A stretch of DNA of 32,000 nt from a bacterium (GTDB lineage: Bacteria; Hinthialibacterota; Hinthialibacteria; Hinthialibacterales; Hinthialibacteraceae). Within the stretch, counting starts at the first letter, position 1, and each line of letters starts with the position of its first letter. The notes under the pieces were generated by a model. That model was given only the letters and a program-made list of their open reading frames with translations, was not told where the DNA came from and searched no databases. Location of the stretch: NCBI GenBank assembly GCA_963662285.2, contig CAXXMV010000008.1, positions 750,083-782,082 of the forward strand. The letters run 5' to 3'. Position numbers and translations under genes: made by a program. This document shows positions 2,972-24,697 of the stretch, piece by piece.

Positions 2972-3327
2972 TTTTGATATTATCCTTTACTCGAGTTACG
3001 CTAATAAATTGCATTCCAATAGAAAAAATTACATTCCTCTATGCGAAAGTGCATATTTTTCTCAAAGGTCAAAGAAAGTTGCTAACTCCTCCCGATCCCT
3101 GAAAAACGGATAAAGCCGTTTCGGGAATGTTGCGTCTCTAACTTACTTCCAACAAGCAGAATATTGATTCAGTACGTTTCCAAAAATCGTTGAAGTTTCT
3201 TGCCCCAATACGCATCTTTGTGACTGTAACTAATTAAATCTCAAGATATATGGTTATTTGTCAGCGTACCTTTTATGAGCATTTTCCTAAGCGGTGAAAA
3301 TTATATTTCAAGCTTATTAAGCAAACA

Positions 3328-5043: not shown

Positions 5044-6128
5044 AACTGTATCGACTTCGTTAGCTTTGGAATCATTTGATAATCTCTATCTTCAAAGGGT
5101 TTTTGAAATTCCAATAGCAATTCTTTCATTATGGGATGTATTGCGCATTGCTCCTTTACGTGGCAGTATTGGCAGGTAGTTTTTCCGGTAATTCCCAATT
5201 TCCCGACACCCGCCAACTCACCGGATCCCGAAGCTTTTATCACGGTTCCTTTCCCTTGAGGTGTTAACCAGTAAGCAAAATGACAATGCAGCGGCTCGAC
5301 TTCAGCCCAATCGCCTGCTTGTAGGGTTTTAACATTCCAAGTTAATGAGCCCCGCTGGTTCATTGGTTTAGACCAAATTTGCATTTCACCCGATAGAATC
5401 CCATAGATTTCAACAGCAGGAAGTCCGTGAACATGGACATCCTGTTTGTCTTTGGGCGAGAAAAAACTCCATGTAAATCCCAATCCTTGTTTTTGATAGG
5501 GTAAATAAGGATCGGCTACACGGAGATTAAAGGCTCGATTTCCTGCAGAAAGAATTTCATCTACGGTCTGGCTTTTAACAACTCGGACTCCGGTTTCTTG
5601 CAACGAAGCCCAATGACATGCCAATGCATCCATGGATGGAATTGTTGATGTTGTATCGATAACCTCAGAAAAATGACTTTGAACATAATTAGCTATCGTT
5701 CGGACATTTGGCTCTTTTGTATCTGCAAGAACTTCATTCAACAATTTCCAGGAAATAATATCTTTTTGCGTATTCAAGTTAGCCCAACCAGATTCAGTTA
5801 ATGAGATTGTCACTGGGTATAAATACCATTTTTTGTTTAGCCCCTCGTAGCGTGGACTATTATGATCGTTTAACAAAAGTGGCAATTCATCTTCTAAAAA
5901 GTAACTTCCTGGCTTCAGTCCAAGATCTTCCTTTAAGGGACGTACGAGTGCTTTATAAAGCGATTCCCCCTGACGTAACTTTGTTGAGGGAAATGTTGGA
6001 TGTCCTTGTTTTTCTATTAGCAGAAATTGTACAGGGTCATGAGAAGATAATTTTCTGCAAATCAAACAATATAATACATACGAAATGGACATATCTCTGA
6101 CATTTTCTCGATTTGATTTTTCACACAT
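5040..6128 (-). CDS. Degenerate Nudix-fold domain fused to a cupin-like domain and a C-terminal Cys/His cluster
   Basis: 362-aa ORF. It has a Nudix-like box, FPSTKLRQGESLYKALVRPLKEDLGL, where canonical RE is RP and EE is ED. Cupin-like motifs are HVHGLPAVEIYGILSG and GDWAEVEPLHCH. CQYCHVKEQCAIH lies near the C-terminus. The 4-nt ATGA overlap with the 3328-5043 ORF implies an operon. Confidence 0.65.
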   Translation of the reverse strand: MCEKSNRENVRDMSISYVLYCLICRKLSSHDPVQFLLIEKQGHPTFPSTKLRQGESLYKALVRPLKEDLGLKPGSYFLEDELPLLLNDHNSPRYEGLNKKWYLYPVTISLTESGWANLNTQKDIISWKLLNEVLADTKEPNVRTIANYVQSHFSEVIDTTSTIPSMDALACHWASLQETGVRVVKSQTVDEILSAGNRAFNLRVADPYLPYQKQGLGFTWSFFSPKDKQDVHVHGLPAVEIYGILSGEMQIWSKPMNQRGSLTWNVKTLQAGDWAEVEPLHCHFAYWLTPQGKGTVIKASGSGELAGVGKLGITGKTTCQYCHVKEQCAIHPIMKELLLEFQKPFEDRDYQMIPKLTKSIQL

Positions 6129-6396
6129 ATAGAATACCTATTTGGGCAAGTATTTCCTGGTTCAACGTGAACTGGAGAATCACTCGTTCTGAGTTAGCAC
6201 TTCTTTGTATAATAGTTTGAGTTTTTTAGGCAAGGGGAAACTATCAATCCAATGAATATCTTTTAATGGGAGGCGTAGAAGGAGTGGCCTTCCACACCCC
6301 ACTCATCGTCTTGATGAGTTCCATCCGGCTATCCCTGGCGAGTTGCGCTCCCACAGAGCCCGCGTCCGTTTCACCGGATGCTATCATCTTCTTACA

Positions 6397-6822
6397 TCAC
6401 GTCAGCCGTGTCAAGAGTTTGCACGGCCTGCAGGTTGGCCTTTCTCCTTCCCGCGCTGCGTGAAGTTTACGATCCCATTCAGCGAAGATCGTGGGTCCGC
6501 GTCCGTCAGAGTTCCTTAAGACTTTTTTTACCTGAATGTGCTTCTCCATGAGTTCATCGAGTACTTCGTTCTTGCGTTTGAGTTTTTTTCCCAGCGCTGC
6601 GATTTTTCTCTCAGCGGTGGCAGACACGTCACTTGGGTTGGATTAGAAGGCGGCGGCTCCATTTTCAAAGAATTGCTTCTGTCAGCGGTAGAACATGGAC
6701 GGTTGCAGCCCATACGTCTCACAGTTATCCGATACCTCCTGCCTGTCCACCAAATGGCGCTTCAAAATCCCGACTTTTCCCTGCGGGGTGCAATGCTTGA
6801 GTTTCTTTATGATCTCCTCCAT
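6397..6822 (-). pseudogene. IS3-family-like transposase OrfA remnant with two in-frame stops; the DDE OrfB is missing
   Basis: Minus-strand reading from the ATG at 6822: MEEIIKKLKHCTPQGKVGILKRHLVDRQEVSDNCETYGLQPSMFYR*QKQFFENGAAAF*SNPSDVSATAERKIAALGKKLKRKNEVLDELMEKHIQVKKVL. This is an HTH plus leucine-zipper OrfA layout. There is a TGA at 6682-6684 (where Trp is expected in FYRWQK) and a TAA at 6643-6645. An A7 run (gtaaaaaaagtc) at the zipper end resembles an IS3 slippery site. No integrase-core ORF follows. Confidence 0.55.
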
Positions 6823-7012
6823 TCGAATATGCTATGCTAACTCAAATGAAGTATTTCTCCATTTCCGTTTGAAACGGAGCACGGGAAGGAAGATTGACAT
6901 GTCACTACTTTGTATGATAAAATCAGGTGTGATATATTTCAGAATAATTCTGGATTAAATGGAAAATCTTGGACATATTGACTAATTTTTTATATCAATT
7001 ATAGAGGAATCC

Positions 7013-10000
7013 ATGCTTCATTGCCCTAAATGCCATTCTTCAGATTTGACATTTCGTAAAAAGAAAAACGTCTATATTTGCGATAACTGCGATCATGAGT
7101 TTCATACGAAACAATCATTTACCGCAAAGCGGATTTTTATCAGTTACGGACATGATGAACATGCCGCGTTGGCAGAAAAACTCAAAAACGATCTTGAAAA
7201 GCGTGGACAACTTGTTTGGTTCGATCGCAACCGGATTCCGCTGGGGCCGGATTGGGAGCTCAGCATCGAACAAGGTCTGGCTTGGTTGAGAGAGAACAGG
7301 GAAAACAGTCTCTTTATCATCATCATGACACCCCACTCCGTGCGGCGACCGGATGCTTATTGTCTAAATGAAATAGCTTATGCGGTTTCTAAAAAATTCG
7401 ACATTTTACCGATCATGCTGGTATATTGCGAACCGCCACTGTCGATCCTTCGCTATCAATATCTAGATATGCAGGATTGTCTTCCAATCGATATTCACGC
7501 AACACGCTATGAGAAGCATTTTGAACGACTGTGCCAAGCGATCGAGCAGAACCATCGTGATTTTGAGGGTAATCAAGCATATTTCATGAAGTATCTTGAT
7601 CCATTTTCGCTCTCATTCAACGCTCAAGTATTATCGAAATTGCCGAATTTTGTGGGACGAGGGTGGGTGATAGAAGCAATCGACCGCTGGCTCAGCGATC
7701 CTGAAGGTTCAAAAGTGTTTTGGATCAGCGGCAAGGCGGGCATCGGAAAATCATCGTTGTCGGTTTGGCTTGTTGAGAATCGCCCGGAAATCGCCGCCTT
7801 TCACATGTGCGAGTATCGCAACAACAATAAATCCGATCCCAAAATATGTCTGCTGTTTCTAGTTTATCAACTCACCCAAGAACTGCCTGATTACCAGGAG
7901 AAACTATTACAGCGCGACATTTCCAAAGACGTGCTGGAAAGCGACGCTTCGACGTTGTTTGATTCGCTAGTGGTTGAGCCGCTTTCGATGATCAAAGCGC
8001 CTGAACACAACTTCGTGATTTTGATCGATGCGTTGGATGAAGCATCGCAAGGTCGTGTTAACGACCTGGCCGAATTCATCGCCAACGACTTCAAGAAGAC
8101 GCCTTCCTGGCTACGCCTCATTGTCACCAGCCGACCAGAGACGAATATCCAGACGTATTTTCAATCCATAGATCCCTTTGATTTGGACAAGGCCAAAGAT
8201 CAGAACGAAAACGACATCAAAACCTACTTACAAACTGCCTTGAAGCCGTTTTATCCCGATCAACCCATTTCTTCCGGCGTCTTGCAGACCATCGTCGAAA
8301 AAAGCGAGATGGTTTTCACCTACGTTCAACAAATCATCCAAGAATTGCACGCAGGCCGACTGTCGTTGGATCGGTTAGATGAATTTCCCCGCGGATTGGG
8401 CGAATACTTTTTTACATGGTTTAAGCGACAATTTCCCGAAGCCGACAAACGCAAGCATGACAGCCAGGGGACCGTAGAGATATACAAAAAGCAATGTCTC
8501 CCCTTGTTGGAACTCCTGGCTGTCGCCCAAGAGCCATTAGCCTTGAATACCATTAAATCGATTTTGAACTGGGGCGATTATGGCGATGACATCATTAACT
8601 TTTTCGGTTCATTGCTCATCAAGGATGAGACGGTTCATCCCTTTCACAGTTCGCTGATGGATTGGTTGGAAGATTCACAACGGTCGTATCCCTATACCAT
8701 CCGCGCCATCGCCGGGCATCGCCGTATGATGGAGTATGGTTGGGGAGTGTATGAAGACAATGTCCAAACCCTTCCTGTGTATTTTTTAAGGCGCCTTCCT
8801 CTTCATCTAATGGCTTTGGAGGAATGGGATCGTATCCGACAGTTTCTTTGTGAACCGCATATTCTCTCTCATTGGTCGAGGGATAAGCAGCAATATGAAT
8901 TGCTCGCGCTGTGGCGGCAAATTGGCGAGGCCCTGGACATGGTCGCTCTATATATGGAGGCGACTGTACATCTGGGGGCATCGGATTTTTCACCTCGGCG
9001 AAAGCAGCAGATTTTACGTTCGATCGCTTCGTTTTTGGCTTTGAACGGTCACTATTCGTCGGCGGAAACTCTTCTTCGACAAGCGTTAGCGATTCTGATG
9101 GAATTAGAGGAAGCGTCTTTGATCGATGTAACCGAATGCAAGGAGGATTTAGCGCGAGTTTATACACATCAATACAAGCAGGCCCCGGCGCTTCGTTTAT
9201 TTAAGGAAGTGGAAAAAGCATATGAAAGCGAATTGGGCTTGGATCACTCTGATATGGCAGATTTATTCACCCATATGTCGGATTTGTATTATCAGCAATG
9301 CCGATTCACTGAGGCAGCGCATTATTGCCGTCAGGCTCTTAATATCCATAAGAAACATTTTCACTTCAATCACTCTCTTCTCGCTGATTCGCAGCATGCC
9401 TTGGCGAATATCAATCGCTCTCAAGGGTGTGGTGAAGAAGCGGAATCGCTCTATTTGAGATGTCTGAACATTCACCACGAAAACTTGGGAGATGATCATA
9501 TCAAGGTCGCCGACGTGTTGCACGATTTGGCGATTCTCTACTTTCAACAAAATAACATTACGCAAGCGGAATACCATTTCAAACGCGCATTCGAGATTCG
9601 CAACCGTTTTTTGGGGGCGTCTCACCCTCAAATCGCGGATACATTGAGCGCGTTGGCGGACGTCATGGTCTCCAAAGGTGACCTTACGGGCGCCGAACGG
9701 TATTATCAAGACGCCTTACAGATGCTGGAGACGTCATTCGGCAAAGAAAGCGTAAAGCGGGCGGACGTTATGGAGCGATTCGCCGAGCTCTATATACGTC
9801 AGGATCGCTTTGAACCGGCGATGCGGCTGCTCGATGAAACTCTCTCCATTCGAAATAAGTATTTGGGTCCCATTCAGTTCGACACCATGCGCGCACGGCG
9901 TAAGAGAACACAATTACAGCTACGTTATGAAGGACTGGATAAAAGAAGTGCGTTTGCTAATCGAAATGAGTTCCTTGATATCGAAAGCAGACTGGCTGAA

Positions 10001-11638
10001 ACGTACGGTCAGGCAATCTATGATGCATTTGTAGAGAAAAAAAGTCCGGAACCGGGCGATTTACTGCCGCCCCAAACCGCCGTACAGTTACAAAATGATC
10101 TTGCCCTACTTAGGGATGTGATAGAAATACGCTTGTATGCGGATGTTCTTTCCTACACCATGGTTCAATACCGCATTTGTGAGCTCAGTGGAGATTGGGG
10201 CGATGTGGGAAAAGACCGCGCCGATTTTAATTTGATGCAAGTACTGCTTTCTCTTCCGCCCGATGAAGAGATCCAATTTCACCACTATTCACTATATGCA
10301 GAGGCGCGAGAGGAATTGATGGGAACGCTGCATCTTGATCGCTTGAATAAAGAATCGATCGATGCGTTGAAAAAAAAGATGGAATGGTTCGAGTTAAAGA
10401 TATTAAACAAAAAATTCAATCTGAAATCGAAGGAGATTAATCGAATTCTCGCATGGTTGAAATCCAATCATCGATTGACAAACTCATCGGAATGCTTGTT
10501 ATGGGGAAGAGCAGATTGCTTCGGTATGCAAAACAACACAATATCCATCTACCACCATGAGGAGATGCGTTCACCTTTGCTGGCCAATTATTGCGTATCA
10601 TTTTCGAAAGATACGGAAATCATCTTACGTGAAGAAGGGATCAACTATGTGATGTATATCAAATGGGCGAGTGTATTTAATGGTTCGGCGTTTGCGCCGA
10701 CGGCTAAGGAACAAATCTCGGATCGTCTAAAACAATGCGCGCTGGAGGCCTGCCGAATCGGAACGCGACGGGATTTTGAACTGCAGAAAGATTTTTTCAT
10801 CAGCGCCATGATGGAAAATATTTTTTATTATGAATTAACCGACAAATCACTCAATGAGGTGGTTGGAAGTATATCCGTTGGAATGCAATCTGGATTAAGG
10901 AACTTCCACAATAAAAATTTCCTGGCGCACGTGAATTGTCTTACATGCGAATGGCATCCGCTTGTCGATGGCAAAGTCAGCCCCATCGGCAATATTTTAG
11001 ACACAGCTATCGAGAAGAGCGATTACAACCGCGCCTTGCAACTTCTATATATCTATCTCAGCGACGGCTGGTTTCTAGACACCGACATCTCTTTTATGTA
11101 TCCCTATACTCATATTCTGTACCTTCTTATTCTTCCTTATCTGAAAGAGCCTTTGTATGTCGACTTTGAAATGATGCAAAAGGATTTGCCGACACTGTTT
11201 GATTTTATGATAAGTGAATATAAGCGAATGCTCGAACATTTGCATAATTTCCTTCTTAAACGAAGTTATATTGATGAGGGAAAAGAATGCCATTTTGAGA
11301 ATATCAAAGATAAGATTCTCTGCTTCCAAACACTTTATGAAACGTTGGGTACACATTTCGACACGGAATGGGTGAAATCAATTAATTTTTGGAGAAATTT
11401 TTTCAGCAGAGTTCTTCGAGAAGATCCCTTGTTTCATCAGGCATTGACGATTCAGATCCAAGAATATCAAATGGATTTCTATGCCAAATTGTTGAGTCGT
11501 TTTCATGGCCAAAAGCAATACGATCCCAGCCCGGCTGGTGTTGAGAATTATATCATCGAACAAATGACGGATCGAGGGTACTCCATTCGAGATAAGCAGA
11601 TGATCTATCTACCTTTATCCGAACTTGGACTCGATTGA
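7013..11638 (+). CDS. Zn-ribbon - TIR - NACHT-type STAND NTPase - TPR protein with a ~540-aa unassigned C-terminal region
   Basis: 1541-aa ORF with a GAGG SD 5 nt upstream. It starts with a CPKC...CDNC zinc ribbon. The TIR domain reads RIFISYGHDE...LFIIIMTPHS...AYCLNEIAYA, with a putative catalytic Glu120 (nt 7370-7372). Walker A is GKAGIGKS (7730-7753), Walker B is FVILIDALDEA, followed by LRLIVTSRPE. Kinesin-light-chain-type TPRs cover about residues 660-955. I recognise no motif beyond about residue 1000. Confidence 0.9.
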   Translation: MLHCPKCHSSDLTFRKKKNVYICDNCDHEFHTKQSFTAKRIFISYGHDEHAALAEKLKNDLEKRGQLVWFDRNRIPLGPDWELSIEQGLAWLRENRENSLFIIIMTPHSVRRPDAYCLNEIAYAVSKKFDILPIMLVYCEPPLSILRYQYLDMQDCLPIDIHATRYEKHFERLCQAIEQNHRDFEGNQAYFMKYLDPFSLSFNAQVLSKLPNFVGRGWVIEAIDRWLSDPEGSKVFWISGKAGIGKSSLSVWLVENRPEIAAFHMCEYRNNNKSDPKICLLFLVYQLTQELPDYQEKLLQRDISKDVLESDASTLFDSLVVEPLSMIKAPEHNFVILIDALDEASQGRVNDLAEFIANDFKKTPSWLRLIVTSRPETNIQTYFQSIDPFDLDKAKDQNENDIKTYLQTALKPFYPDQPISSGVLQTIVEKSEMVFTYVQQIIQELHAGRLSLDRLDEFPRGLGEYFFTWFKRQFPEADKRKHDSQGTVEIYKKQCLPLLELLAVAQEPLALNTIKSILNWGDYGDDIINFFGSLLIKDETVHPFHSSLMDWLEDSQRSYPYTIRAIAGHRRMMEYGWGVYEDNVQTLPVYFLRRLPLHLMALEEWDRIRQFLCEPHILSHWSRDKQQYELLALWRQIGEALDMVALYMEATVHLGASDFSPRRKQQILRSIASFLALNGHYSSAETLLRQALAILMELEEASLIDVTECKEDLARVYTHQYKQAPALRLFKEVEKAYESELGLDHSDMADLFTHMSDLYYQQCRFTEAAHYCRQALNIHKKHFHFNHSLLADSQHALANINRSQGCGEEAESLYLRCLNIHHENLGDDHIKVADVLHDLAILYFQQNNITQAEYHFKRAFEIRNRFLGASHPQIADTLSALADVMVSKGDLTGAERYYQDALQMLETSFGKESVKRADVMERFAELYIRQDRFEPAMRLLDETLSIRNKYLGPIQFDTMRARRKRTQLQLRYEGLDKRSAFANRNEFLDIESRLAETYGQAIYDAFVEKKSPEPGDLLPPQTAVQLQNDLALLRDVIEIRLYADVLSYTMVQYRICELSGDWGDVGKDRADFNLMQVLLSLPPDEEIQFHHYSLYAEAREELMGTLHLDRLNKESIDALKKKMEWFELKILNKKFNLKSKEINRILAWLKSNHRLTNSSECLLWGRADCFGMQNNTISIYHHEEMRSPLLANYCVSFSKDTEIILREEGINYVMYIKWASVFNGSAFAPTAKEQISDRLKQCALEACRIGTRRDFELQKDFFISAMMENIFYYELTDKSLNEVVGSISVGMQSGLRNFHNKNFLAHVNCLTCEWHPLVDGKVSPIGNILDTAIEKSDYNRALQLLYIYLSDGWFLDTDISFMYPYTHILYLLILPYLKEPLYVDFEMMQKDLPTLFDFMISEYKRMLEHLHNFLLKRSYIDEGKECHFENIKDKILCFQTLYETLGTHFDTEWVKSINFWRNFFSRVLREDPLFHQALTIQIQEYQMDFYAKLLSRFHGQKQYDPSPAGVENYIIEQMTDRGYSIRDKQMIYLPLSELGLD

Positions 11639-11716
11639 AACAGGACGAAACTACTGGAACTGTTGAGCAGTACAGACGACGCGTTCTTGACAAACAGAGC
11701 ATTAATCGAGGTTTTT

Positions 11717-14700
11717 ATGCTAATCGATTTTCTGACTTATCAACGAGAGACCCAAAAGCAACCGGCTCCGTCTAAGCCACTCGATTGGACTTGCGGGGAA
11801 TTGCTTTGTGATGTCAGCTATCTTCAATACACGGGGCCGTCGGAATGGGAGTGCACTGGTTTATTCGGCTCTTCACATACATGCAAAGATATACACCGGA
11901 ATCGCCGTTTTCTCTGCTTGGTTCCACGGGAAGAAATCTATCGCAAAGGTTGGGTGCGTAAGCGATTTGCGTTTGAGTACAAACGGCTTCTCACCGCCTC
12001 TCCCTCCCCCTTTCTGATGATTCCCGTAGGATGGATCGAAAGGGTTGATTATGTCATGTGCATCTTGGAATGGAATGACAGGGTTCCGCTGCAAACCTTG
12101 TTAGAATCATCACAATCGGCGCCATCCTCTTCTCCACTTCCCTTTGCCGATCCCCAAGTGCGAGCGCGCGATGCACTCGAATTGTTTTTCCAAGTCGCCA
12201 CGGGAATGAAACAGTTGCATGACAAAACAGGGTTGATTCATCACAATCTTCATCCCGGAACCCTCTTTTGGAGTCAAGAGCGTCAGGCGTTTCAAATCAG
12301 CGGTTTTCTACTTTCGCATAGTCTGTATTGGACTCGGGAGGATGAACCTGAGTTTGAAACGACATTTCCGGACAACAATGTATCTTCAGAAGATAGTATC
12401 TGCGCATTTCAATTTCCCGAATCCGTCCGTCCCTATCTTCCTCCAGATGTTCTCGATAATCCCCTGCATGCGGAACCCTGCGACGATATATATTCTCTCG
12501 GCATGATCGTATATCAAATTCTGCATAATTTTAACGATGAAGTCGTCAAGCGGTTTCCAACGGATGGTTTTGAAACGCCCGAGTGTGGAAGTGATGGGCT
12601 TCTTACCTTACTGCGCCGATGCCTGGCGACGCAGAGGGATGATCGATGCATTTCGTGGGACGCTCTTCTCGACGATGTACGTAATATGTTGTCTGAAAAT
12701 AAGAGTCGATCCCTGCAAAAACCCCAACTCATTCTTTCATGCGACGACTGTGTGAATCTATCCTGGGCGCACATCGACATGAGTAAATACAGTCGCGCCG
12801 GGGAATGGGCCAACCAAGCCCTCGACATCGAGTCGAATAATTCTTTCGCTCAAATAGCCAAGATGATCACTCTTGGGAAAATCGGTCGCTTGGATGAAGC
12901 CTTTGAAATTGGATCATCCTTACTTCGTAGAGAGCCGGAAAACGCCGAAGCGCATAATTATATGGGTTATTTGTATTACCAAAAAGGAGATTTCAAAACC
13001 AGTCTTGAACATTTTGAATCCAGTTTGCGTTACGATTCCAACCTAGCCTGCAACTATAACAACCTCACTGTACTCTATCTTGTTCACGAACGCCTGAAAG
13101 AAGCGCGGGACTGCTTGATGCGGGGCTTGGAACGCTTTCCCTTCGATCCCGATCTATTGGTTTCATGGGTTAGTGTATCCGAATCGCTAGGAGACCTCCC
13201 GAGCGCATTGGCCCATCTCGAAGAAAAACTCGCGGACGATTGGGATGGCTCCATTCACAATGCGTATGGTATGGTGCTGGAAAAAAAAGGCCGCCTCGAT
13301 GACGGAATAATCCGGCTAGAGGCCTTTCTTTCGACCAGGCCGAGCGCCCATCTCGCTTGGAACCGGTTGGGAATTCTTTCAGAAAACGCCGGACATTTGG
13401 AAAAAAGTCTGGAAAGTTTTCAAAAGGCCATCCGTCTCAAACCACATGACGAAAACTATGTGGGCAATTGCCTACGGATTTTAAACTCATTGGGTTGTTT
13501 GTCTGAGGGAATTCAACTTGGAGAACAATGGTTGTCCTGTTATTATCCCGCAATGTCTGTTAGCAGCCTATTGGGAGTGCTATTGACTAATGCGGATGAG
13601 ATAGAACGCGCGGTAGAGCCTCTTCAGAACGCTCAACGCATTGCCCCTTGCGATGAGACATTGGCGGGCAATCTGGTTCACAGTCTGCGCATTGCCGACC
13701 AGGTAAATCAAGCCATTGAATTCGGCGCCGAATGGTCAGTAACTCATAAAGGTGGATCGTATTTTTGGAATCAATTGGGGAACGCCTATTTTGGCTTGGA
13801 GCGTTTTGCCGAAGCAATTCCCTGTTATCAGAAAGCTCTGGAATTCGAACCGGATGATGCAGAAATCGCATCCAATTTATTAAATGCCTATTTTAAAATA
13901 AACGATTTTTCCGCTTGTATGCAATTCGCCGAAGCATGGCTTGCAGACCATCAGGGCAACGAGAATTTTCATACTTACTTAAGCATCTCCTTCATCAACA
14001 CGAATCAGATGGAAAAAGCCATCTCTACCTTAAAAACCGCTATCAGCAAGCAGCCTGAATTAGCAAATTCACTGAAAGAAGTGATTGCCAAATTAACTCA
14101 GAGTGGGCAGGAACAACGGGCGATTGAATTCGGCGAACTCTGGCTCCTACACAATCCTCCGACGCTGGATGTTTTGAATCAAATCGGAATCGTCCATTAC
14201 GAAAACAAACGCTTTGAAGAGGCGACCGCCTGTTTTCGAAACGCACTCGAACTGGAACCAAGTAATAAAACTGTCGCATTGAATATAATGAATTCCTACG
14301 ATAACTTGAATCAGTATCAGCGGTGCATCGAATTTGGAGAAAATTGGCTCCAACACAATCCTCCGACGCTGGATGTTTTGAATCTTATCGGAATCGTCCA
14401 TTACAAAAACAAACGCTTTGAAGAAGCGACCGCCTGTTTCCAAAACGCGCTCGAACTGGAACCAAGTAATAAAACTGTCGCATTGAATATAATGAATTCC
14501 TACGATAACTTGAATCAGTATCAGCGGTGCATCGAATTTGGAGAAAATTGGCTCCAACACAATCCTCCGACGCTGGATGTTTTGAATCTTATCGGAATCG
14601 TCCATTACAAAAACAAACGCTTTGAAGAAGCGACCGCCTGTTTCCAAAACGCGCTCGAACTGGAACCAAGTAATAAAACTGTCGCATTGAATATAATGAA

Positions 14701-15760
14701 TTCCTACGATAACTTGAATCAGTATCAGCGGTGCATCGAATTTGGAGAAGATTGGCTTAATCGGCACTCGCCAGATGATACAATATTCGGACATCTTGTC
14801 GATGCGTACACTCATTTAGGAAAGTATGATAAAGCAGAACAAGCGTTAGTAAAAGCACCGAAAGAATATCAATATTTGAGATGTATACTAAACGCTTACT
14901 ATCAATCCAAACAATTTGACAAAGCCATCGATTGTGCAGAACAATGGAAAGATCAATACAATCTTGAGCCGGAGTTATGGAATTCCTTGGGACAAATCCA
15001 TTATGATAAAAAACAATATTCGGAAGCCTTAGAATGCTATGAAGAAGCATCGCGATTGTCCCCTGAAAATCTAGATTACCTTAATAACTCTGCTTTGGCC
15101 TTGTCCTCATTAAAAAAACACGATGAAGCGATTGCCCGAATGGGCTATGTACTTGAGCAACAGCCTAGTACTTTACTTTATGCACAAAATTACTTTACAT
15201 GCCTTAAAGACGCCAACCACAAAGAAAAAGCTGTTGAATTTGCGAAAGGGTGGATGGAAGCAAATACTGTGGATGAAATTTTATTGAATTCTGTAGGACT
15301 AACGTTAGATGATTTAAAGAAAGATAAAGATGCAATTGAATGCTACCAGAAGGCTCACGAACTGAATCCTCAAAATGCCGGGTATTTAAATAATATGGGA
15401 ATGAGTTTCAAAGCACTCGGCCAATTCGATCAAGCCATTACTTTAACGAAGCAAGCCATAGAACTGGAGCCGAAAAATATTGTTATTATTGTGAATCATC
15501 TTATCTGTTTGAAAAGTGCAGACCGTCTGGATGAAGCGATCCAAATCGGCAATGCTTGGATTCAAGAACATGGCGAAAAACCAATAGTTTTAAATCAATT
15601 GGCGTTGATTCACGAACAAAAATTTGATTTTGAAAATGCGCTGGTCTGTTATGATTCCACACAAGAGAAAGAGAAATACCTTGCCGCATTAATAGATTAC
15701 GGCCGGTATGAAGCCCTGAATCAAGCCTTGGAATGGTATGACTGGATGGAGACGGCGTGA
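11717..15760 (+). CDS. Protein-kinase-fold domain (predicted pseudokinase) fused to a long TPR array
   Basis: The track ORF starts at a TTG at 11663. I prefer the ATG at 11717, preceded by GAGG plus a 5-nt spacer. Kinase-fold landmarks are LELFFQVATGMKQLHDKTGLIHHNLHPGTLFW (HRD-loop equivalent), FQISGFLLSH (DFG equivalent), PYLPPDVL and DIYSLGMIVYQIL (subdomain IX). TPR repeats run from about residue 370 to the end. Confidence 0.85.
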   Translation: MLIDFLTYQRETQKQPAPSKPLDWTCGELLCDVSYLQYTGPSEWECTGLFGSSHTCKDIHRNRRFLCLVPREEIYRKGWVRKRFAFEYKRLLTASPSPFLMIPVGWIERVDYVMCILEWNDRVPLQTLLESSQSAPSSSPLPFADPQVRARDALELFFQVATGMKQLHDKTGLIHHNLHPGTLFWSQERQAFQISGFLLSHSLYWTREDEPEFETTFPDNNVSSEDSICAFQFPESVRPYLPPDVLDNPLHAEPCDDIYSLGMIVYQILHNFNDEVVKRFPTDGFETPECGSDGLLTLLRRCLATQRDDRCISWDALLDDVRNMLSENKSRSLQKPQLILSCDDCVNLSWAHIDMSKYSRAGEWANQALDIESNNSFAQIAKMITLGKIGRLDEAFEIGSSLLRREPENAEAHNYMGYLYYQKGDFKTSLEHFESSLRYDSNLACNYNNLTVLYLVHERLKEARDCLMRGLERFPFDPDLLVSWVSVSESLGDLPSALAHLEEKLADDWDGSIHNAYGMVLEKKGRLDDGIIRLEAFLSTRPSAHLAWNRLGILSENAGHLEKSLESFQKAIRLKPHDENYVGNCLRILNSLGCLSEGIQLGEQWLSCYYPAMSVSSLLGVLLTNADEIERAVEPLQNAQRIAPCDETLAGNLVHSLRIADQVNQAIEFGAEWSVTHKGGSYFWNQLGNAYFGLERFAEAIPCYQKALEFEPDDAEIASNLLNAYFKINDFSACMQFAEAWLADHQGNENFHTYLSISFINTNQMEKAISTLKTAISKQPELANSLKEVIAKLTQSGQEQRAIEFGELWLLHNPPTLDVLNQIGIVHYENKRFEEATACFRNALELEPSNKTVALNIMNSYDNLNQYQRCIEFGENWLQHNPPTLDVLNLIGIVHYKNKRFEEATACFQNALELEPSNKTVALNIMNSYDNLNQYQRCIEFGENWLQHNPPTLDVLNLIGIVHYKNKRFEEATACFQNALELEPSNKTVALNIMNSYDNLNQYQRCIEFGEDWLNRHSPDDTIFGHLVDAYTHLGKYDKAEQALVKAPKEYQYLRCILNAYYQSKQFDKAIDCAEQWKDQYNLEPELWNSLGQIHYDKKQYSEALECYEEASRLSPENLDYLNNSALALSSLKKHDEAIARMGYVLEQQPSTLLYAQNYFTCLKDANHKEKAVEFAKGWMEANTVDEILLNSVGLTLDDLKKDKDAIECYQKAHELNPQNAGYLNNMGMSFKALGQFDQAITLTKQAIELEPKNIVIIVNHLICLKSADRLDEAIQIGNAWIQEHGEKPIVLNQLALIHEQKFDFENALVCYDSTQEKEKYLAALIDYGRYEALNQALEWYDWMETA
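14120..14760 (+). repeat. In-frame 204-bp (68-aa, two-TPR) tandem repeat, ~3.1 copies
   Basis: Copies start at 14120, 14324, 14528 and 14732 (partial). Read base by base, 14324-14527 and 14528-14731 are identical. Perfect 204-bp periodicity holds over 14246-14749. Copy 1 has scattered substitutions (by eye roughly 90 percent identical). Confidence 0.95.
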
Positions 15761-15826
15761 TGAAAATCAAATTTGTTGGAGAGGAAGGTTTAGAATCGAA
15801 ATTCTTTTTAAGGATCTTCAGAAAAC

Positions 15827-18304
15827 ATGAACCTACACTGGTATGACGAACAAATTCAACTTTACAAAAAACTTACTTCCCTCTATGAAAAAATGGCGGC
15901 GGGATTAAAACGGCGTCTGCAAATCGCCATGTCCGAGATGGGGATGGACGCTATCGTTCAGGCGCGTGCAAAAACCATCTCCAGCTATGCAGAAAAGATC
16001 GTCCGCAAACAGAGCAAATATGCCGATCCTATCCGTCTGATCACCGACCTCTGCGGACTGCGCATCATCGTCGAACGATTGGATGAAGTTCGCCGATTGT
16101 GCGATTTCATTGAAACCGAGTTTGAGATTGATGAAGGAAACAGTGAAGATTGCCTCGAACGTCTGAAGATCAATGAGTTCGGCTACTTATCCAATCATTA
16201 CATCGTGATGTTGACTTCCCCCGAAAAAGCTGAAGCGTTCGGCATTACGACGAGCGATCTCGATATCATAAAAACAGTCAAGGGGCTGGATTTTCCGATC
16301 AAGGCCGAGATCCAAGTACGGACGCTACTGCAACATGCATGGGCGGTTTTCATACATAAGCATCTCTATAAAAGGAAATGGAACCTACCGCGGGCGTGGC
16401 TCCGCGAAACATCCCGTATCTCGGCTATGTTGGAGGATGCGGACGATTCGTTTTCCCGACTGGTCGAGGAAATTGACGTCTATAAGACACAGTACGGCGC
16501 CTACATGACGCCAGATCAGATGAACAGTGAAATCGAGATGCTGCAATTGATTCAACGTTACGATCCCGGTAATGAATCTCTTGCCCGTGAAATTGCTCGA
16601 ATCGCGAAGGAAAGCGGACGCTGGTCATTGGTGGTGGAAACATTATTGCCGTTTCGCGAATCCGCCGATCCCGACTCTCTTCTCGATCTCGGCAACGCCA
16701 TTTTGCACATGAAAGATCCGCTCCAAGTCGATGAAGGCCACCGCCTGATTGAGCGCGCCATTGAATTGTCTGCTAAAAACGCACCAGCCTATATCACCTT
16801 AGCCCAATTGTGCAGAGAAAGCGAACAGACAAAACGTTTGCGCTATTACGAAATGGCTTTTCAGGCCGATCCAAACGAACCCATGGCATTTTGTGGTTTT
16901 CTGCTAAACAAAATCATAGCAGAGCGAAATCGAGATTTTCTAGCATTGCTTCGCCCTCTTATAGAAAATGCCGTCAAACGTTGTAATGATCGAATACGCG
17001 CCGGTGTCGATGCTTCCTCTTCGTATTGTCATATCGGAATATTGCAGATGGCGTTGGGTCGAATGGAATCGAGCGCATCCGCCTTTGCCAAAGCGGCGAC
17101 ATTAAAACCGGTTCCTCGCGTATTTTATGAATATCGAGATTCGGTGCGTTTATTAATAAATCAGGTTAACAATCAATGGCCCGAACTACTCATACTCGAC
17201 CAACTATTCGATCTCTTCAACAAAGCAGAGGCGCTTCAAAGCGGTTCAATCTCTGACATTTCAAACGACTTGCAGACGACGAGCCTGATACGGATTCCCG
17301 TTGTCATTGTGGCAGGCAGCTGCAATGAAGATTCGTCTCACCTCATGGAGGCGCATCGAAAATTGATGACAGAATCGTTTCAAGGATTTCAAGGAACAAT
17401 TGTATCAGGCGGAACCCGATCAGGCGTCAGTGGTCTGGTGGGAGATATGTCGTTGGATATGGGCAACGCCGTGAAACTGGGATATATACCCAAAGACATC
17501 GAATCAAATCAACTGCATCCTGCTTTCCTCATCCGGAGAACGAAGGGATCAACCTTTTCGACGCTGGAACCAATCCAGTATTGGATAGATTTGCTACAAT
17601 CTGGGATTTGTCCATTGCAAGTAAAATTGATCGGCTTCGGTGGTGGGGTGCTTTCAGCGTTTGAATATCGCTTGGCGCTGGCAATGGGCGCCTGGGTGGG
17701 CATATTGCCTGATAGCAGGCGTGAAGCCGCCCGCCTGCTGGACGACGATGATTGGAATGGCTCACCGAACCTTCTTCGCATTCCGTTGGATGCTGGGATT
17801 TTACGTTCCTTCATTCACCCTGCGCCGTCGGCGGCGTTTGCGTCGGATGATCGCGAGCGAATGGCACGGGGCATTCATGGCGAATATCGAAAAAAACATG
17901 TGAAGCGATTGCTGCAATACGAGCCTTCCGCCGTCGAGTGGGAATATCTGAGAGACGATTTGAAAGAGTCTAATCGGCGACAGGCCGATCACTATTGCAT
18001 GACGTTGCAATCGGCCAGTCTCAACATTCGGAAGGCGCTGAGGAGGAGTGAAATACAAATCATTGAATTCACTGATCGTGAAATAGAAGTCATGGCCGAA
18101 AGAGAACATTCGCGTTGGACCGTGGAGCGCTTGATGGATGGATGGCGTCTGGGAGAGCAGAACACCGACCGAAAAGAAAGCCCCTATCTGGTCTCCTGGA
18201 TGGACCTTTCCGACGATATTAAGGACTACGACCGAAACGCAGTCAAGGACATTCCACGGATTTTAGAAGAATACGGTTATGAAGTGTATCGTGAAACCAT
18301 CTGA
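15827..18304 (+). CDS. RelA/SpoT-type (RSH, synthetase-only) nucleotide pyrophosphokinase - TPR-like - SLOG/LOG-like Rossmannoid - RyR module fusion protein
   Basis: 825-aa ORF. All RSH synthetase motifs are present: RAKTISSYAEK (15965-15997), ITDLCGLRIIV, FGYLSNHYIV, EIQVRTLLQHAWA (16307-16345), HKHLYK. There is no HD hydrolase domain. Residues ~230-480 form a helical TPR-like region. The SLOG/LOG-like region (~17290-17720) reads PVVIVAGS...IVSGGTRSGVSGLVGD...IGFGGGVLSAFEYRLALAMGAWVGIL. The C-terminal RyR signature is EREHSRWTVERLMDGWRLG...SPYLVSWMDLSDDIKDYDRNAVKDIPRILEEYGYEV. Confidence 0.85.
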   Translation: MNLHWYDEQIQLYKKLTSLYEKMAAGLKRRLQIAMSEMGMDAIVQARAKTISSYAEKIVRKQSKYADPIRLITDLCGLRIIVERLDEVRRLCDFIETEFEIDEGNSEDCLERLKINEFGYLSNHYIVMLTSPEKAEAFGITTSDLDIIKTVKGLDFPIKAEIQVRTLLQHAWAVFIHKHLYKRKWNLPRAWLRETSRISAMLEDADDSFSRLVEEIDVYKTQYGAYMTPDQMNSEIEMLQLIQRYDPGNESLAREIARIAKESGRWSLVVETLLPFRESADPDSLLDLGNAILHMKDPLQVDEGHRLIERAIELSAKNAPAYITLAQLCRESEQTKRLRYYEMAFQADPNEPMAFCGFLLNKIIAERNRDFLALLRPLIENAVKRCNDRIRAGVDASSSYCHIGILQMALGRMESSASAFAKAATLKPVPRVFYEYRDSVRLLINQVNNQWPELLILDQLFDLFNKAEALQSGSISDISNDLQTTSLIRIPVVIVAGSCNEDSSHLMEAHRKLMTESFQGFQGTIVSGGTRSGVSGLVGDMSLDMGNAVKLGYIPKDIESNQLHPAFLIRRTKGSTFSTLEPIQYWIDLLQSGICPLQVKLIGFGGGVLSAFEYRLALAMGAWVGILPDSRREAARLLDDDDWNGSPNLLRIPLDAGILRSFIHPAPSAAFASDDRERMARGIHGEYRKKHVKRLLQYEPSAVEWEYLRDDLKESNRRQADHYCMTLQSASLNIRKALRRSEIQIIEFTDREIEVMAEREHSRWTVERLMDGWRLGEQNTDRKESPYLVSWMDLSDDIKDYDRNAVKDIPRILEEYGYEVYRETI

Positions 18305-18710
18305 ACCTTGGGCGTCACCCATTCCAACGGCACGAGTCATCATCGTCAATGAAGAGGGCGCTGTATTGCTATTGAAACGTGGTGAGGGCGACTATGGTGC
18401 CGGTCTGTGGTGCTTACCCGGTGGGAAGGTGGATTATGGAGAATGCCTCAAGGAGGCGGCCCGTCGTGAACTGCATGAAGAAACATCGATCCACCCAGAC
18501 CATCTACGTTTTTTATTCTATCAGGATGGATTACCCAAATTTGATCAGGATATGCATTGCATCGAACTTTTTTTTCAATGCGTATACTCCGGTCCCGTCT
18601 CCGTCAATTGCGAATCCATCGATTTTGCCTGGGTTAAAGAGAAAGGAATACAAGATTATCCTATGGCTTTCAATCACGACCGAGCATTGAGCCGATATTG
18701 GGAAACATGA
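18279..18710 (+). CDS. Nudix hydrolase (small, single domain, near-canonical Nudix box)
   Basis: 143-aa ORF. The Nudix box GGKVDYGECLKEAARRELHEETSI (18420-18491) fits GX5EX7REUXEEXGU except for the final G, which is S. The start overlaps the upstream RSH gene by 26 nt. Confidence 0.85.
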   Translation: MKCIVKPSEPWASPIPTARVIIVNEEGAVLLLKRGEGDYGAGLWCLPGGKVDYGECLKEAARRELHEETSIHPDHLRFLFYQDGLPKFDQDMHCIELFFQCVYSGPVSVNCESIDFAWVKEKGIQDYPMAFNHDRALSRYWET

Positions 18711-19136
18711 TAAAAGTTGTCTGCTAAGTCTATCCGTTTTTTATGGATTGGATTGAGACACATTGCGGCAAAGGGATTTCCAATCGTGCAATCAAAATAT
18801 TGTCTATTTCTCAGTACTCATTTTAAGCTTGCCAGCAGCTTATAGCAGAACTTAAGTAATAATATAATGGAACATGCAATAAGATTAATGAATCCAGGAA
18901 TCTTACGCTTTTTTTGCTTTTATTATGTCTCTAGTAAATAAGCCGTGAAGTCAAAAAACTCATCCTACATGCAAGAGCTTCATATAAAACGGTTTGCGTT
19001 AACTATATTTTTGTAGGCTTGGCCTATTGAGTTTGTCTGCGTTTGCTGGAATGATAATTCTTTTGCTCAGTATATAGGATTATCTCTTCCCGTGCTGGAA
19101 TTCATTTTGAAACCTTGCCATTTGATTATCTGATTC

Positions 19137-19307
19137 ATGGCCTCGCATTTCAATCGCGAGCAGCAGCAAATCATTGAGTATCTGCAGGTTGAGAACGAGG
19201 TTCTCCGTGAAAAGTTGGAGAAAAAGTCCTTTTTTAACTATCCGATATTTTTATTGCCAGGTGAAACGGAGGTCGGCTCTGCTGGAGAGCAACCGGCCAA
19301 GGGATAA
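19137..19307 (+). pseudogene. Possible N-terminal fragment of a transposase (coiled-coil/HTH leader), decayed
   Basis: 56-codon ORF below the track cutoff: MASHFNREQQQIIEYLQVENEVLREKLEKK, then nonsense. The leader resembles the N-termini of integrase-core transposases as I remember them. The downstream frames are broken and abut the IS21 end. Confidence 0.3.
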
Positions 19308-19422
19308 CCTGGTGCGTTTGCGATGGGTGGAAACTGGGGGTGAACTTAAAAAGATTCGCTCCCTGATTCCTTTCAATTCCACCCGGAACATTCGCCCATG
19401 CCTCACAAAACTCAAATCATAA

Positions 19423-20214
19423 CTATGTGTTTTCTTCATCATGCGGTGTTGTTTCCTGTCCAGATTTAGTTTCCATCTTTTGCCGCGTCCGGTATGAGTT
19501 GCCTTTGGTGGTGAGAATATGAGCGTGGTGCACGAGGCGGTCCAGCAAGGCGGTGGTTAATTTCTCGCTGCCGAAAACCTGCACCCATTCACTGAAATCC
19601 AAGTTGGTCGTCACAATGGTCGAGCGGCGTTCGTATCGATCCGCCAAAAGATTAAATAGCAACTCGCCTTCGTGTTTGTTGAAAGGAGTGAATCCCAGTT
19701 CATCCACAATCAAAAGAGAAACGCTCAAATAGCGTTGATGCAAACGTCCCAGCGTCCGGTCATCTTTGGCTTCCACCAAATTCCTGACCAGTTCCGATGC
19801 TCTCACAAAAACCACCCTGCATCGACGCCGCGCCGCTTCCATGCCCAGCGCAATGGCCAAGTGTGATTTGCCCGTTCCGATTGGCCCCGCAATAATCACG
19901 TCATCCGCGCGATCAATAAATTCACCACTGGCCAGTTCGAGCACTTTCGGTTTGGATACCCCGCGCAATTTCTGCCAATCAATTTGATCAAGCGTTTTTT
20001 GATCGGGGAAACGGGCTTCCCGAATACGGCGCAAGGCGCTTTTCTCGCGTCGTTCGCGCACTTCCGACTCAAGCAACTGCTTGAGAAATTCTTCATAAGG
20101 CCAATCCCCATCCTGCGCATGACGCGCTAATTCCGGGTAAAGCCGCACCATGGCGCTGAGTTTAAGTTCTTTCCCATATTCTTCAATCACGGCTTTCAAG
20201 GCGCTATTATTCAT
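19423..20214 (-). CDS. istB: IS21 helper ATPase IstB
   Basis: Walker A is IIAGPIGTGKSHLAIALG and Walker B is LLIVDELGF; the AAA+ IstB-like sequence runs throughout. I prefer the ATG at 20214 (MNNSALKAV...) over the track start at 20241. Confidence 0.9.
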   Translation of the reverse strand: MNNSALKAVIEEYGKELKLSAMVRLYPELARHAQDGDWPYEEFLKQLLESEVRERREKSALRRIREARFPDQKTLDQIDWQKLRGVSKPKVLELASGEFIDRADDVIIAGPIGTGKSHLAIALGMEAARRRCRVVFVRASELVRNLVEAKDDRTLGRLHQRYLSVSLLIVDELGFTPFNKHEGELLFNLLADRYERRSTIVTTNLDFSEWVQVFGSEKLTTALLDRLVHHAHILTTKGNSYRTRQKMETKSGQETTPHDEENT

Positions 20215-21115
20215 GATCGCCTCCTCGCAACAAAAAATCATAATCGGCGGCGGTCGCTTTTTCGATCACATATTCTGCCAGTTCATCCGGCACGGGAATA
20301 GTTAGAGGCGCACTTTGATCAATGATATCCATTCGCCCCAACAGACCGGTTCGATCTGCGTCCAGTATGTCCTTAACAGCCTGACTGACCTCTTCCAAAG
20401 ATGAGTCCAGGATCGCTCTAAGCACTTTGGCCATTATGCGGGCGGCGTTAATTCCACCGTGTGATTTTTCCAGCAAGTTCCAGAAACGCTGAAATGGTTC
20501 GCCTAGTTCCGACATCAACTCCGGCGAAAGTTGACGGACTGCTTGCGGCTTTTTGGCGAATTCACGCAGGTAATGAACATAGCGAATCTGCCGCCCCGCT
20601 TGTTTTTTCTTTTCATAAATAACGGTGATCCCCTGGCAAACAATCCGTATTTCTTCCACGCCGACATAGGCCATCGCTTCCAGGCAAGCCCATTCCGAGG
20701 GCAGCGAATACTCGGTTCCCTCAATGATGGCGGTCGATTTACGGTTGATTGAAATGGGGAGCAAACGGCTTGGATCAAACGGATAAGGCGGCAGGGAATG
20801 TAAATAGCGCTGCTCTTCTTTGATCTTTTCCGCAACCGGTTTCCCGGCGCGATCCTTTTTGGATTGACGAAGTTTCTCAATGTCATGCAAGAGGGCTTGC
20901 GATAATTGGGCCAGCGAATCGCCGCGCGGAACCGGCGTGAGATGCTGCAAACGAATACCTTTACCCCGGCTTTCCACTCCGCCTTTGTCGTGTCCAACGC
21001 CAACCCGCGCAAAGCAGGGTTCGAATAAATAATGGCTCACCAAGGCGTGGAAGCGTCCGCTTAATTCACGGGCGGGATACATGATGCGTTTTACCGCCGC
21101 CGCCAGATCAACCAA
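20207..21115 (-). pseudogene. istA: IS21 transposase IstA, C-terminal ~300 aa only
   Basis: The track ORF begins at a TTG inside the end of the catalytic core (GHDKGGVESRGKGIR). The expected N-terminal HTH and first DDE residues are missing, and upstream sequence is an unrelated phage-like ORF on the other strand. Confidence 0.75.
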
Positions 21116-21138
21116 TCACAAGACAAAGGAGCATCGAC

Positions 21139-21537
21139 ATGACGGATAACAATTTACCAACATTTTACATGACAGAAGACGAACTCATTCCTGAGGGCGT
21201 TTATCAAACTGAATGCACCAAAGTGGAAAGCATCAAAAAGGGCAGATACATCAAGTTTACTTTCTGAATTTTGGATTATAGCCTTGAGAAAAACTTTGCG
21301 AATGGACTCTGCGAAACACGAAGCAACCGATCTTCCAGTTTCGTACGCTGGGTTAGGACGCTTTCGGGTATTGAATTCTCTAAAGACCAATCCTTCAACT
21401 TGAATGAGTTGCAGCATGACATTATTGGGAACCATTGCTTTGTTCGGATCAAGCATAAAGAAAAAGACGACCGTGTCTTTGATAACGTCGTAGCGGTTTA
21501 TCCGCACGATGATTCGCGATTCACAAAATCGTCATAG
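21139..21537 (+). pseudogene. Small phage-like hypothetical gene interrupted by one in-frame TGA
   Basis: The ATG at 21139 has a strong AAGGAG SD 8 nt upstream. After 42 codons (MTDNNLPTFYMTEDELIPEGVYQTECTKVESIKKGRYIKFTF) there is a TGA at 21265-21267. The same frame then continues into track ORF 21271-21537, which has no SD of its own. Confidence 0.4.
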
Positions 21538-21542
21538 GAGGA

Positions 21543-21770
21543 ATGAGACAAATGACTGTACCCGCTACCTTGAAAAAAGTCATAACGCCGGAAGGGAAAG
21601 TTTATTACGAGGGTTCTTTCCCTTCTTGTATATCCAAGAGCAAAGAGGATCTTAAAGTGATCGGTTACGATGAAGAAAATGTTCCATCTGAATTGCGTTC
21701 TATGGCGTCAAAAGTTCCAGCGAAAGATGGTAATTTTTATCTTTTCATTGAAGAACTGACCAAGAAGTGA
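21543..21770 (+). CDS. Hypothetical small protein (75 aa; start may be the ATG at 21552)
   Basis: An AGGAGG lies immediately upstream, and its spacing fits the second ATG (21552) better. I recognise no motif. Confidence 0.45.
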   Translation: MRQMTVPATLKKVITPEGKVYYEGSFPSCISKSKEDLKVIGYDEENVPSELRSMASKVPAKDGNFYLFIEELTKK

Positions 21771-21855
21771 TTCCGTACTGGATGGCCTTCGGTGAGGTAA
21801 TCGCTTCGCCGGAGCCGATGCGAAACAGAATTCTGATCGATCATGGAATAGACAG

Positions 21856-24681: not shown

Positions 24682-24697
24682 AATTATCTCCCTTTTA

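Follow-up and report, generated by a model that had tools for sequence, protein, structure and literature searches.

A genomic island in a Hinthialibacterota bacterium couples an alarmone synthetase carrying SLOG and RyR domains to a Nudix hydrolase and is probably a new kind of nucleotide-signaling anti-phage system

We analyzed a 32,000-nucleotide stretch of a Hinthialibacterota genome (GenBank assembly GCA_963662285.2, contig CAXXMV010000008.1, positions 750,083 to 782,082 of the forward strand), here called the window and numbered from its first nucleotide. It carries an island of seven genes. The conserved heart of this island is an alarmone synthetase with SLOG and RyR domains, protein C, paired with a Nudix hydrolase, protein D, and the whole locus is probably a new kind of nucleotide-signaling anti-phage system. 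On the same strand, 5' of C, lie the genes of a TIR-NACHT-TPR protein (A) and of an orphan pseudokinase-TPR protein (B). Three further co-directional genes, U2, U1, and U0, are found on the opposite strand 5' of A and had gone unnoticed in the original prediction, which was made without database searches and put forward A, B, C, and D as a four-gene defense system. The coordinates of these four open reading frames (ORFs) proved exact, as did the gap of 66 nucleotides between B and C and the overlap of 26 nucleotides between C and D. The conserved unit is not the A-B-C-D set, however, given that B is absent from all 160 related loci and most A orthologs occur without C.

Protein C and its Nudix partner

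Protein C (825 amino acids; 15827-18304, plus strand) combines, by Pfam matches and structural models, a RelA/SpoT-type synthetase (about residues 1-225), a TPR-like helical region (230-470), a TRPM-type SLOG domain (485-665), and a C-terminal RyR domain (740-822). Both outer domains are recognized by Pfam (RelA_SpoT, PF04607, 1.5e-15; RyR, PF02026, 3.2e-14), while no Pfam match to an HD hydrolase domain was obtained in C. In the synthetase, residues R47, K49, K57, D74, R79, E161, Q163, and R165 do not vary across 88 homologs, in agreement with the predicted RelA/SpoT homolog (RSH) with all catalytic motifs and no hydrolase domain, and C has the sequence characters of a synthetase-only RSH (SAS). 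The full-length AlphaFold model (pLDDT 91, pTM 0.85) has an N-terminal domain that superposes on RelQ/RelP in Foldseek (TM 0.74 to 0.81 for this predicted model). Likewise, the RSH domain matched RelQ/RelP at 1e-9 to 5e-5 and CapRel (7ztb) at 0.64, so that CapRel, which modifies tRNA, appears more distant from it than RelQ/RelP, which are true alarmone synthetases.

The SLOG domain had been the least secure of the domain calls. No SLOG match in C itself reached an E value of 0.01 in Pfam, and the domain was not visible when full-length C was compared by Foldseek because RSH and TPR matches dominated. PF18171 (LSDAT_prok) is nonetheless recorded on many C homologs, including the one in locus L165, and a separate AlphaFold model of residues 478 to 675 (pLDDT 89) found its best Foldseek matches in the Moco carrier protein (TMt 0.76) and in the MHR1/2 region of TRPM2/3/7 (E, 4e-6 to 1e-4), ADPR (ADP-ribose)-bound TRPM2 among them. 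The call therefore holds, and C has the characters of the LSDAT/TRPM clade of the SLOG superfamily; SLOG, LSDAT, and SLATT were reportedly defined by Burroughs et al. in 2015 (NAR). For RyR, a C family profile matches the RyR R12 domain at ~1e-32. ADPR-type ligands would have two plausible binding sites in C, one in SLOG and one in RyR.

Relatives of C are numerous. More than 141 full-length protein homologs share 30 to 40% identity with it, and bacterial and archaeal assemblies, taken at one genome per species, yielded at least 514 loci, spread patchily over many phyla and several archaeal lineages. Shorter relatives carry PF20308 (TPR-S), a sensor repeat by Pfam's naming. To survey the neighborhoods, 80 loci were taken with 10-kb flanks, and all six-frame ORFs were compared with domain pieces of the window proteins and with profiles of neighbor clusters. 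A D-like Nudix gene was present in 53 of these 80 loci, and in 48 it lay on the same strand within 500 nucleotides of the C gene or was fused to it. Fusions carry the Nudix domain at either the N or the C terminus of the C homolog (P0027, P0045, P0101, P0104, and P0112). The link between RSH-SLOG-RyR and Nudix proteins, predicted from this one locus, is thus very strong.

D itself (143 amino acids; 18279-18710, plus strand) is a small MutT/NudG-like Nudix hydrolase (NUDIX, PF00293, 3.4e-21). Its box, G49-x5-E55-x7-R63-E64-L65-x-E67-E68-x-S70-I71, is intact except for the replacement of the last Gly by Ser and is, as had been proposed, near-canonical for a Nudix enzyme. The original prediction also considered ADPR-type nucleotides as substrates, and on this point it fared less well: the best NCBIfam matches of D are of the MutT/NudG type and not ADP-ribose pyrophosphatases. 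Judged by sequence, the target of D is more likely the RSH product than a TIR-made signal. The proximity of C to true alarmone synthetases and the MutT/NudG likeness of D would together suit a pair of enzymes of which one makes and the other hydrolyzes a nucleoside polyphosphate.

The other genes of the island and their setting

Protein A (1,541 amino acids; 7013-11638, plus strand) consists, by Pfam, of an N-terminal zinc ribbon, a TIR domain (TIR_2, 3e-15, residues 41 to 173), a NACHT domain (NPHP3_N/NACHT, 2.6e-25), TPR repeats (TPR_10/12, ~1e-36), and an unassigned C-terminal domain (about residues 1000 to 1541) for which a homolog was found only in L081. The conserved Glu that had been noticed in the motif 'CLNEI' is E120, invariant in four A orthologs; together with the fold match, this Glu in a 'C-x-x-E' helix is as expected of TIR NADases and cyclases. 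Invariant among orthologs are also Walker A residues G243, G245, and K246 and Walker B residues D339, D342, and E343, so that A has the Walker A Lys, the Walker B acidic residues, and the C-terminal repeats of STAND/NACHT (NLR-like) proteins. A reads as a STAND/NLR-like sensor with a putative TIR enzyme head.

Of the three genes on the minus strand, U2 (5040-6128) encodes a Nudix-like N-terminal domain, a metal cupin, and a Cys cluster. Its Nudix box is partly degenerate (R-P-x-x-E-D), and the Pfam match (NUDIX, 1.4e-3) stays below the cut-off. The family comprises 334 homologs at 52 to 62% identity, some with an extra C-terminal Nudix domain, and its metal ligands are conserved throughout, the invariant residues being H232, H234, E240, H283, C319, C322, and C328. 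A U2 paralog (P0258, 54% identity) is encoded elsewhere on the same 1.64-Mb contig. Homologs adjoin C-Nudix pairs in L041 and L165 and TIR- or DUF4062-STAND genes in L161, L163, and L166, a distribution that would make U2 an enzyme-like partner both of TIR/STAND proteins and of C.

The first 4 nucleotides of U1 (3328-5043, minus strand) are also the last 4 of U2. U1 has two transmembrane helices with a pore-helix-like loop, 'LYSTIQLFILEYDD', two TrkA_N/RCK-type Rossmann domains (TrkA_N, 1.6e-7), and a C-terminal RyR domain (1.6e-6), and the family alignment shows conserved 'Y..QLF.LESG' and 'CGLG..G' motifs and an 'EH.RW' motif in RyR. These features make U1 a candidate ligand-gated channel effector, but it has no canonical TVGYG-type filter and no Ion_trans_2 match.

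U0 (1-2971, minus strand; at least 990 amino acids) extends past the left edge of the window, which is why it was missing from the ORF list. The left 3 kb might have been taken for noncoding DNA, a notion that we rejected since U0 is encoded there. It is a DUF4062 (TIR-like)-NACHT-TPR protein (Pfam: DUF4062, 7e-11; NPHP3_N; TPR) with the characters of a STAND NTPase. In blastx searches it was 44 to 46% identical to a protein of the A-ortholog loci L085-L093/L106 and 26 to 44% identical to DUF4062 proteins encoded beside C homologs.

Protein B (11663-15760, plus strand, from a TTG start) has a pseudokinase-like N-terminal domain followed by about 950 amino acids of TPR_1/2 repeats. The Pfam kinase match (Pkinase, 4.4e-6) scores 26.7 bits against a cut-off of 31.7, and 'HHN' and 'SGF' stand in the positions of HRD and DFG, so that B lacks the marks of an active kinase and the pseudokinase-TPR call made for it is borne out. 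Its place in a four-gene system is not. A HMMER search of 1.84 billion representatives with residues 2 to 380 returned no homolog except B itself and weak generic kinase similarity, which marks B as lineage specific, and a role as a conserved adaptor of the system was rejected for want of homologs. The TPR region contains three tandem 204-nucleotide copies (14141-14757, plus strand; 97% matches), which encode a repeated 68-amino-acid double-TPR block and look like a recent repeat expansion. The real start of B is probably the ATG at 11717, as in the database protein P0121. The gap between A and B accordingly has two values, 24 nucleotides from the TTG at 11663 or 78 from the ATG.

The four plus-strand genes had been described as almost certainly one operon. 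With a promoter-like site 5' of A and no convincing plus-strand terminator inside the A-D block, the arrangement is compatible with a single operon, which falls short of proof. The site (6894-6923, plus strand) is the best sigma-70-like match in a scan of positions 3000 to 19500, with 11 of 12 hexamer positions and an extended -10 TG, although it is a consensus match only; it lies about 90 nucleotides 5' of A in the 884-nucleotide intergenic region (6129-7012) that separates two divergent operons. Two overlapping ORFs of 87 to 100 amino acids in this region (6538-6840 and 6695-6958) had no Pfam match and no relatives among the loci retrieved, and blastx of the intergenic segments 6100-7050, 18650-19450, and 21100-22050 retrieved nothing related. 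Since U0, U1, and U2 belong to the same network as A and C, the functional locus would extend over about 1 to 18710 and consist of the two divergent operons.

On its right side the block is flanked by an IstB-like IS21 ATPase gene (19423-20241, minus strand; IstB_IS21, 4e-76), a tyrosine integrase gene (22041-23090, minus strand; Phage_integrase, 7e-25), and a gene for tRNA-Arg (TCG) (23177-23250, minus strand) that adjoins the integrase and marks the island boundary. These three features identify the block as a genomic island, and the pairing of a tyrosine integrase gene with an adjacent tRNA-Arg(TCG) gene is typical of island integration sites. No att repeat matching the tRNA end was found within the window, which implies that the far end of the island lies beyond coordinate 1 or has degenerated. 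Two minus-strand ORFs follow the IstB-like gene (20207-21115 and 21154-21507) without a Pfam match; an intact IstA transposase was not recognized, and 19423-21507 may therefore be a decayed insertion sequence. Past the tRNA, the right flank (23404-31458) resembles ordinary chromosome; it carries genes for a GFO/IDH/MocA oxidoreductase and for a DUF6807 protein, besides a series of ORFs that share one direction.

Neighborhoods of C and A relatives

Beyond the Nudix gene, the company of C is varied but recurrent in type. A gene resembling U1, with two transmembrane helices, TrkA_N, and RyR, occurs in 22 of the 80 C loci and lies within 500 nucleotides of C in 14. The membrane effector SLATT, likewise with two transmembrane helices, was found in 11, and one or the other of these membrane proteins in 31. 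ClpB-like AAA+ proteins (9 loci) and sigma-54-type AAA+ proteins (7 loci) are less frequent. A third RyR family, X-AAA+-RyR, with a central AAA+ ATPase and a C-terminal RyR domain in 770 to 1,062 amino acids, is present in 9 of the 80, with lengths of 860 to 1,060 amino acids, and was seen in L052, L017, L080, L064, L058, L059, L051, L078, L049, and L105. RyR is thus a C-terminal module shared by three unrelated protein types, namely C, the U1-like proteins, and the AAA+ proteins. Overall, the genes of this network keep the company of STAND NTPase, TIR, SLATT, CHAT, and TCAD9 genes.

The predicted association with a TIR or TIR-like STAND protein also recurs. DUF4062-NACHT STAND NTPases are encoded in 20 of the 80 C loci and an A-type TIR in 6, with either in 25. 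Clear A orthologs (NACHT, E ~1e-80) were found in C loci of a Methanobacterium, where the gene is directly 3' of C, and of metagenome-assembled genomes of the Ignavibacteriaceae and the Planctomycetales. Neither the kinase-like domain of B nor the C-terminal domain of A was found in any of the 80.

Approached from the other side, metagenome contigs hold 422 relatives of A. In most of the best 80 loci, no RSH or RyR gene was seen in the available sequence. In unrelated lineages, however, the neighbors of A orthologs include C-like, SLOG-RyR, or RyR proteins (L008, L058, L070, L101, L104/105, L123, and L085). L101 has, in order, a U2-Nudix fusion, C, and an A ortholog, and L041 has a DUF4062-STAND protein, C, Nudix, U2, and TIR_2; in these two loci the gene set of the island recurs in another order. 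In L104/105, a 439-amino-acid SLOG-RyR protein is encoded directly 5' of the A ortholog, with AAA-RyR and U1-like genes 3' of it. A paralogs accompany a C homolog in L123/124, and a RyR protein, two A paralogs, and a U0 ortholog are found together in L085-L093.

A signaling scheme and its rivals

As the original prediction had supposed, the locus is not a catalogued system: PADLOC 2023 lists none of this kind and gives weak partial matches to candidate families only (PDC-S33, which C matches at 9.5e-13, and PDC-S07), with nothing for U1 and U2. Among the searchable literature we found no paper joining SLOG, RyR, and Nudix, or toxSAS and Nudix, or an alarmone synthetase and TIR/cADPR (cyclic ADPR) signaling beyond a general review, although an earlier in silico mention of the architecture is possible. 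In its logic the locus resembles Thoeris and NLR-type systems. As in Thoeris, there is a TIR domain that keeps its catalytic Glu, a separate protein bears a SLOG domain able in principle to sense an ADPR-derived signal, and the order is signal, then effector. In contrast to Thoeris, the TIR domain here is fused to a NACHT-TPR STAND protein, the SLOG domain is of the TRPM/LSDAT type and sits on an RSH protein and not on SIR2, and there are additional RyR receivers, a Nudix protein, a channel-like effector, and U2. No SIR2 or Macro domain was found, and ThsB models matched at 1.3e-3 and 3.8e-5, far below the cut-offs (PADLOC, NCBIfam). With the small alarmone synthetases RelQ/RelP and the toxSAS proteins FaRel, CapRel, and Tas1, protein C has in common a stand-alone RSH synthetase with full motifs and no hydrolase domain, next to a small hydrolase by which the product might be removed, but it is an 825-residue protein with TPR, SLOG, and RyR regions, and its partner is a Nudix enzyme and not SAH or another known antitoxin. 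A and U0 share with Avs, bNACHT, and TIR-NLR proteins the tripartite build of N-terminal enzyme or effector, NACHT, and C-terminal repeats. Unlike these, they are embedded with dedicated SLOG- and RyR-bearing partners and U2, which suggests that the TIR head signals, instead of or besides depleting NAD+.

What such a signal might meet is indicated by a 2026 preprint, according to which phage proteins with the RyR domain (PF02026) have nanomolar affinity for 2'cADPR and 3'cADPR or else cleave these molecules (PMC13232231). The phage protein RyDEP uses His75, Trp78, His100, and Asp117, which are conserved throughout the family including the animal RyR R12 domain, and six of the eight phage RyR domains assayed bound cADPR isomers (PMC13232231). 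Mapped by spacing and motif and not by alignment to RyDEP, the RyR domain of U1 keeps all four ligand positions; that of C, mapped in the same way, has an invariant H761 and nearly invariant W764 and D802 at the RyDEP spacing. RyR itself is therefore a likely cADPR/ADPR receiver by analogy, a role that had been overlooked when only SLOG was considered. The likeness to phage RyDEP thus covers the domain family and the His, Trp, and Asp ligand or catalytic positions (PMC13232231); the difference is that C and U1 are host encoded and fused to an enzyme or a channel, and that C lacks the second His. Presumably, the host RyR proteins act as receivers in defense and not as sponges or glycosidases for evasion.

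On this basis we favor the following scheme. The STAND proteins A and U0 would recognize an invader via their TPR or C-terminal regions and then oligomerize, whereupon their TIR or TIR-like heads would turn NAD+ into an ADPR-derived signal, for instance, a cADPR isomer. The receivers of this signal would be, in C, the SLOG domain, the RyR domain, or both and, in U1, the RyR domain. Activated C would make an alarmone of the (p)ppGpp or (p)ppApp type and arrest growth, and U1 would open and dissipate ion gradients. D might hydrolyze the product of C, acting as an antidote and setting a threshold, and U2 might process or buffer the ADPR-type signal, while B would be a lineage-specific add-on serving as a decoy, an adaptor, or an extra sensor. 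Taken from STAND-TIR signal through SLOG/RyR receipt, alarmone synthesis, and channel opening to Nudix reset, we give this sequence of events a little less than an even chance. The bolder proposal, in which TIR-made cADPR-type signals are received by the RyR and TRPM-type SLOG domains of host proteins and NAD+-derived immune signaling is thereby coupled to alarmone synthesis and to a RyR-gated cation channel, we regard as tentative and put clearly below even. Compared with the mechanism first proposed for this locus, the domain calls, the link between C and D, and the recurrence of TIR/STAND proteins have stood, whereas B as a member of a conserved four-gene unit has not, and D more likely removes the RSH product than the TIR signal.

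Several observations weigh against the scheme. No TIR or DUF4062 gene was seen in 55 of the 80 C loci, which implies that the core can function with no TIR gene nearby or relies on a TIR encoded at another site. Some 60 of the roughly 65 nonredundant metagenome A loci show no RyR or RSH gene in the DNA at hand. The second, phosphate-binding His of RyDEP is replaced by Ser in the RyR domain of C, hhalign recovered only a weak likeness of DUF4062 to TIR (probability, 12.6%; P, 0.002), and the co-location of A and C could reflect the clustering of genes in defense islands. The first two observations would be expected if A and U0, C-D, and U1 were independent neighbors in a defense island with no signal passing between them. 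A and U0 would then be self-contained NLR-like proteins with TIR as an NAD+-depleting effector, and lone-acting TIR-NACHT proteins are an established class (Avs/bNACHT). C-D would be a separate, self-sensing toxin/antidote pair in which the TPR region of C senses the trigger, RSH is the toxin, and Nudix is the antitoxin, consistent with the minimal C-Nudix(-U1) cassettes that lack a STAND protein (L023, L054, and L076) and with the TPR-S sensor repeat of the shorter C relatives. However, independence does not account for the repeated occurrence of A orthologs beside C-like, SLOG-RyR, or RyR genes in organisms as distant as Methanobacterium, Ignavibacteriaceae, and Planctomycetales and in several metagenomes, nor for U2, which bridges the A-type and C-type gene sets, and it would leave two ADPR-type sensor domains on C without a source of ligand. 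We consider it unlikely, though still a serious contender.

Conceivably, C generates the signal and is not the terminal effector, in which case RSH would make a pyrophosphorylated adenine or guanine messenger, U1 and AAA-RyR proteins (through their RyR domains) and SLATT partners would read it and be the killers, and Nudix would degrade the messenger. The membrane effectors in 31 of the C loci, the three-gene C-Nudix-U1 cassettes without any TIR, and the MutT/NudG likeness of D, which suits nucleoside polyphosphates, all point in this direction. We know of no RSH product that binds a RyR domain, however, and the recurrent TIR/STAND and U2 partners would go unexplained, as would the SLOG and RyR sensors on C itself unless they served feedback. 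RyR R12 domains do bind adenine nucleotides (PMC13232231), which lends this version some appeal, but on balance it strikes us as rather improbable.

Alternatively, RyR might be a homotypic adaptor module, akin to the effector-associated or death-like domains known from other STAND/AAA+ conflict systems, that joins C, U1, and AAA-RyR in one complex. Its C-terminal position on three unrelated protein families within single loci would suit such a function, and both RyDEP and the eukaryotic R12 domain occur as dimers or pseudo-dimers with two-fold symmetry (PMC13232231), while each protein here has a single repeat. A pure adaptor would not need the ligand-contacting His, Trp, and Asp, which are invariant or nearly so, and the binding of cADPR isomers by most of the phage domains assayed (PMC13232231) also argues for a ligand; moreover, A and U0 have no RyR domain. 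There is little to recommend this reading over receipt of an ADPR-type signal. Finally, a housekeeping circuit for stress or ion homeostasis, unconnected with conflict against mobile elements, in which alarmone synthesis is tied to a K+-type channel, would make sense of the unusual conservation of U2 (52 to 62% identity) and of the physiological roles that RSH enzymes, Nudix enzymes, and RCK channels all have, but the tRNA-linked island with integrase and IstB genes, the patchy spread over phyla and archaea, the constant company of STAND NTPase, TIR, SLATT, CHAT, and TCAD9 genes, and the variable gene order and fusions leave it highly implausible.

If the proposed reception of TIR-made signals by SLOG and RyR domains is true, the locus would be a prokaryotic antecedent of the logic of ADPR/cADPR-gated TRPM2 and ryanodine receptors. 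Like those animal channels, it has a TRPM-type SLOG domain, a Nudix domain, a domain of the RyR R12 type, and a cation-channel-like protein, but the domains are on separate proteins, the pore is of the two-transmembrane-helix RCK type with a noncanonical 'LESG' loop, and an RSH enzyme is attached. It would also be the first link between TIR signaling and the chemistry of the stringent response, joining TIR/ADPR signals and RSH alarmones. Furthermore, it would define a widespread uncharacterized defense module, present in at least 514 species-level bacterial and archaeal genomes, and would assign a cellular function to host RyR proteins soon after phage RyR proteins were shown to bind cADPR isomers. 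The island would also offer a tractable bacterial model for the origin of eukaryotic Ca2+ channel gating by SLOG, Nudix, and RyR domains.

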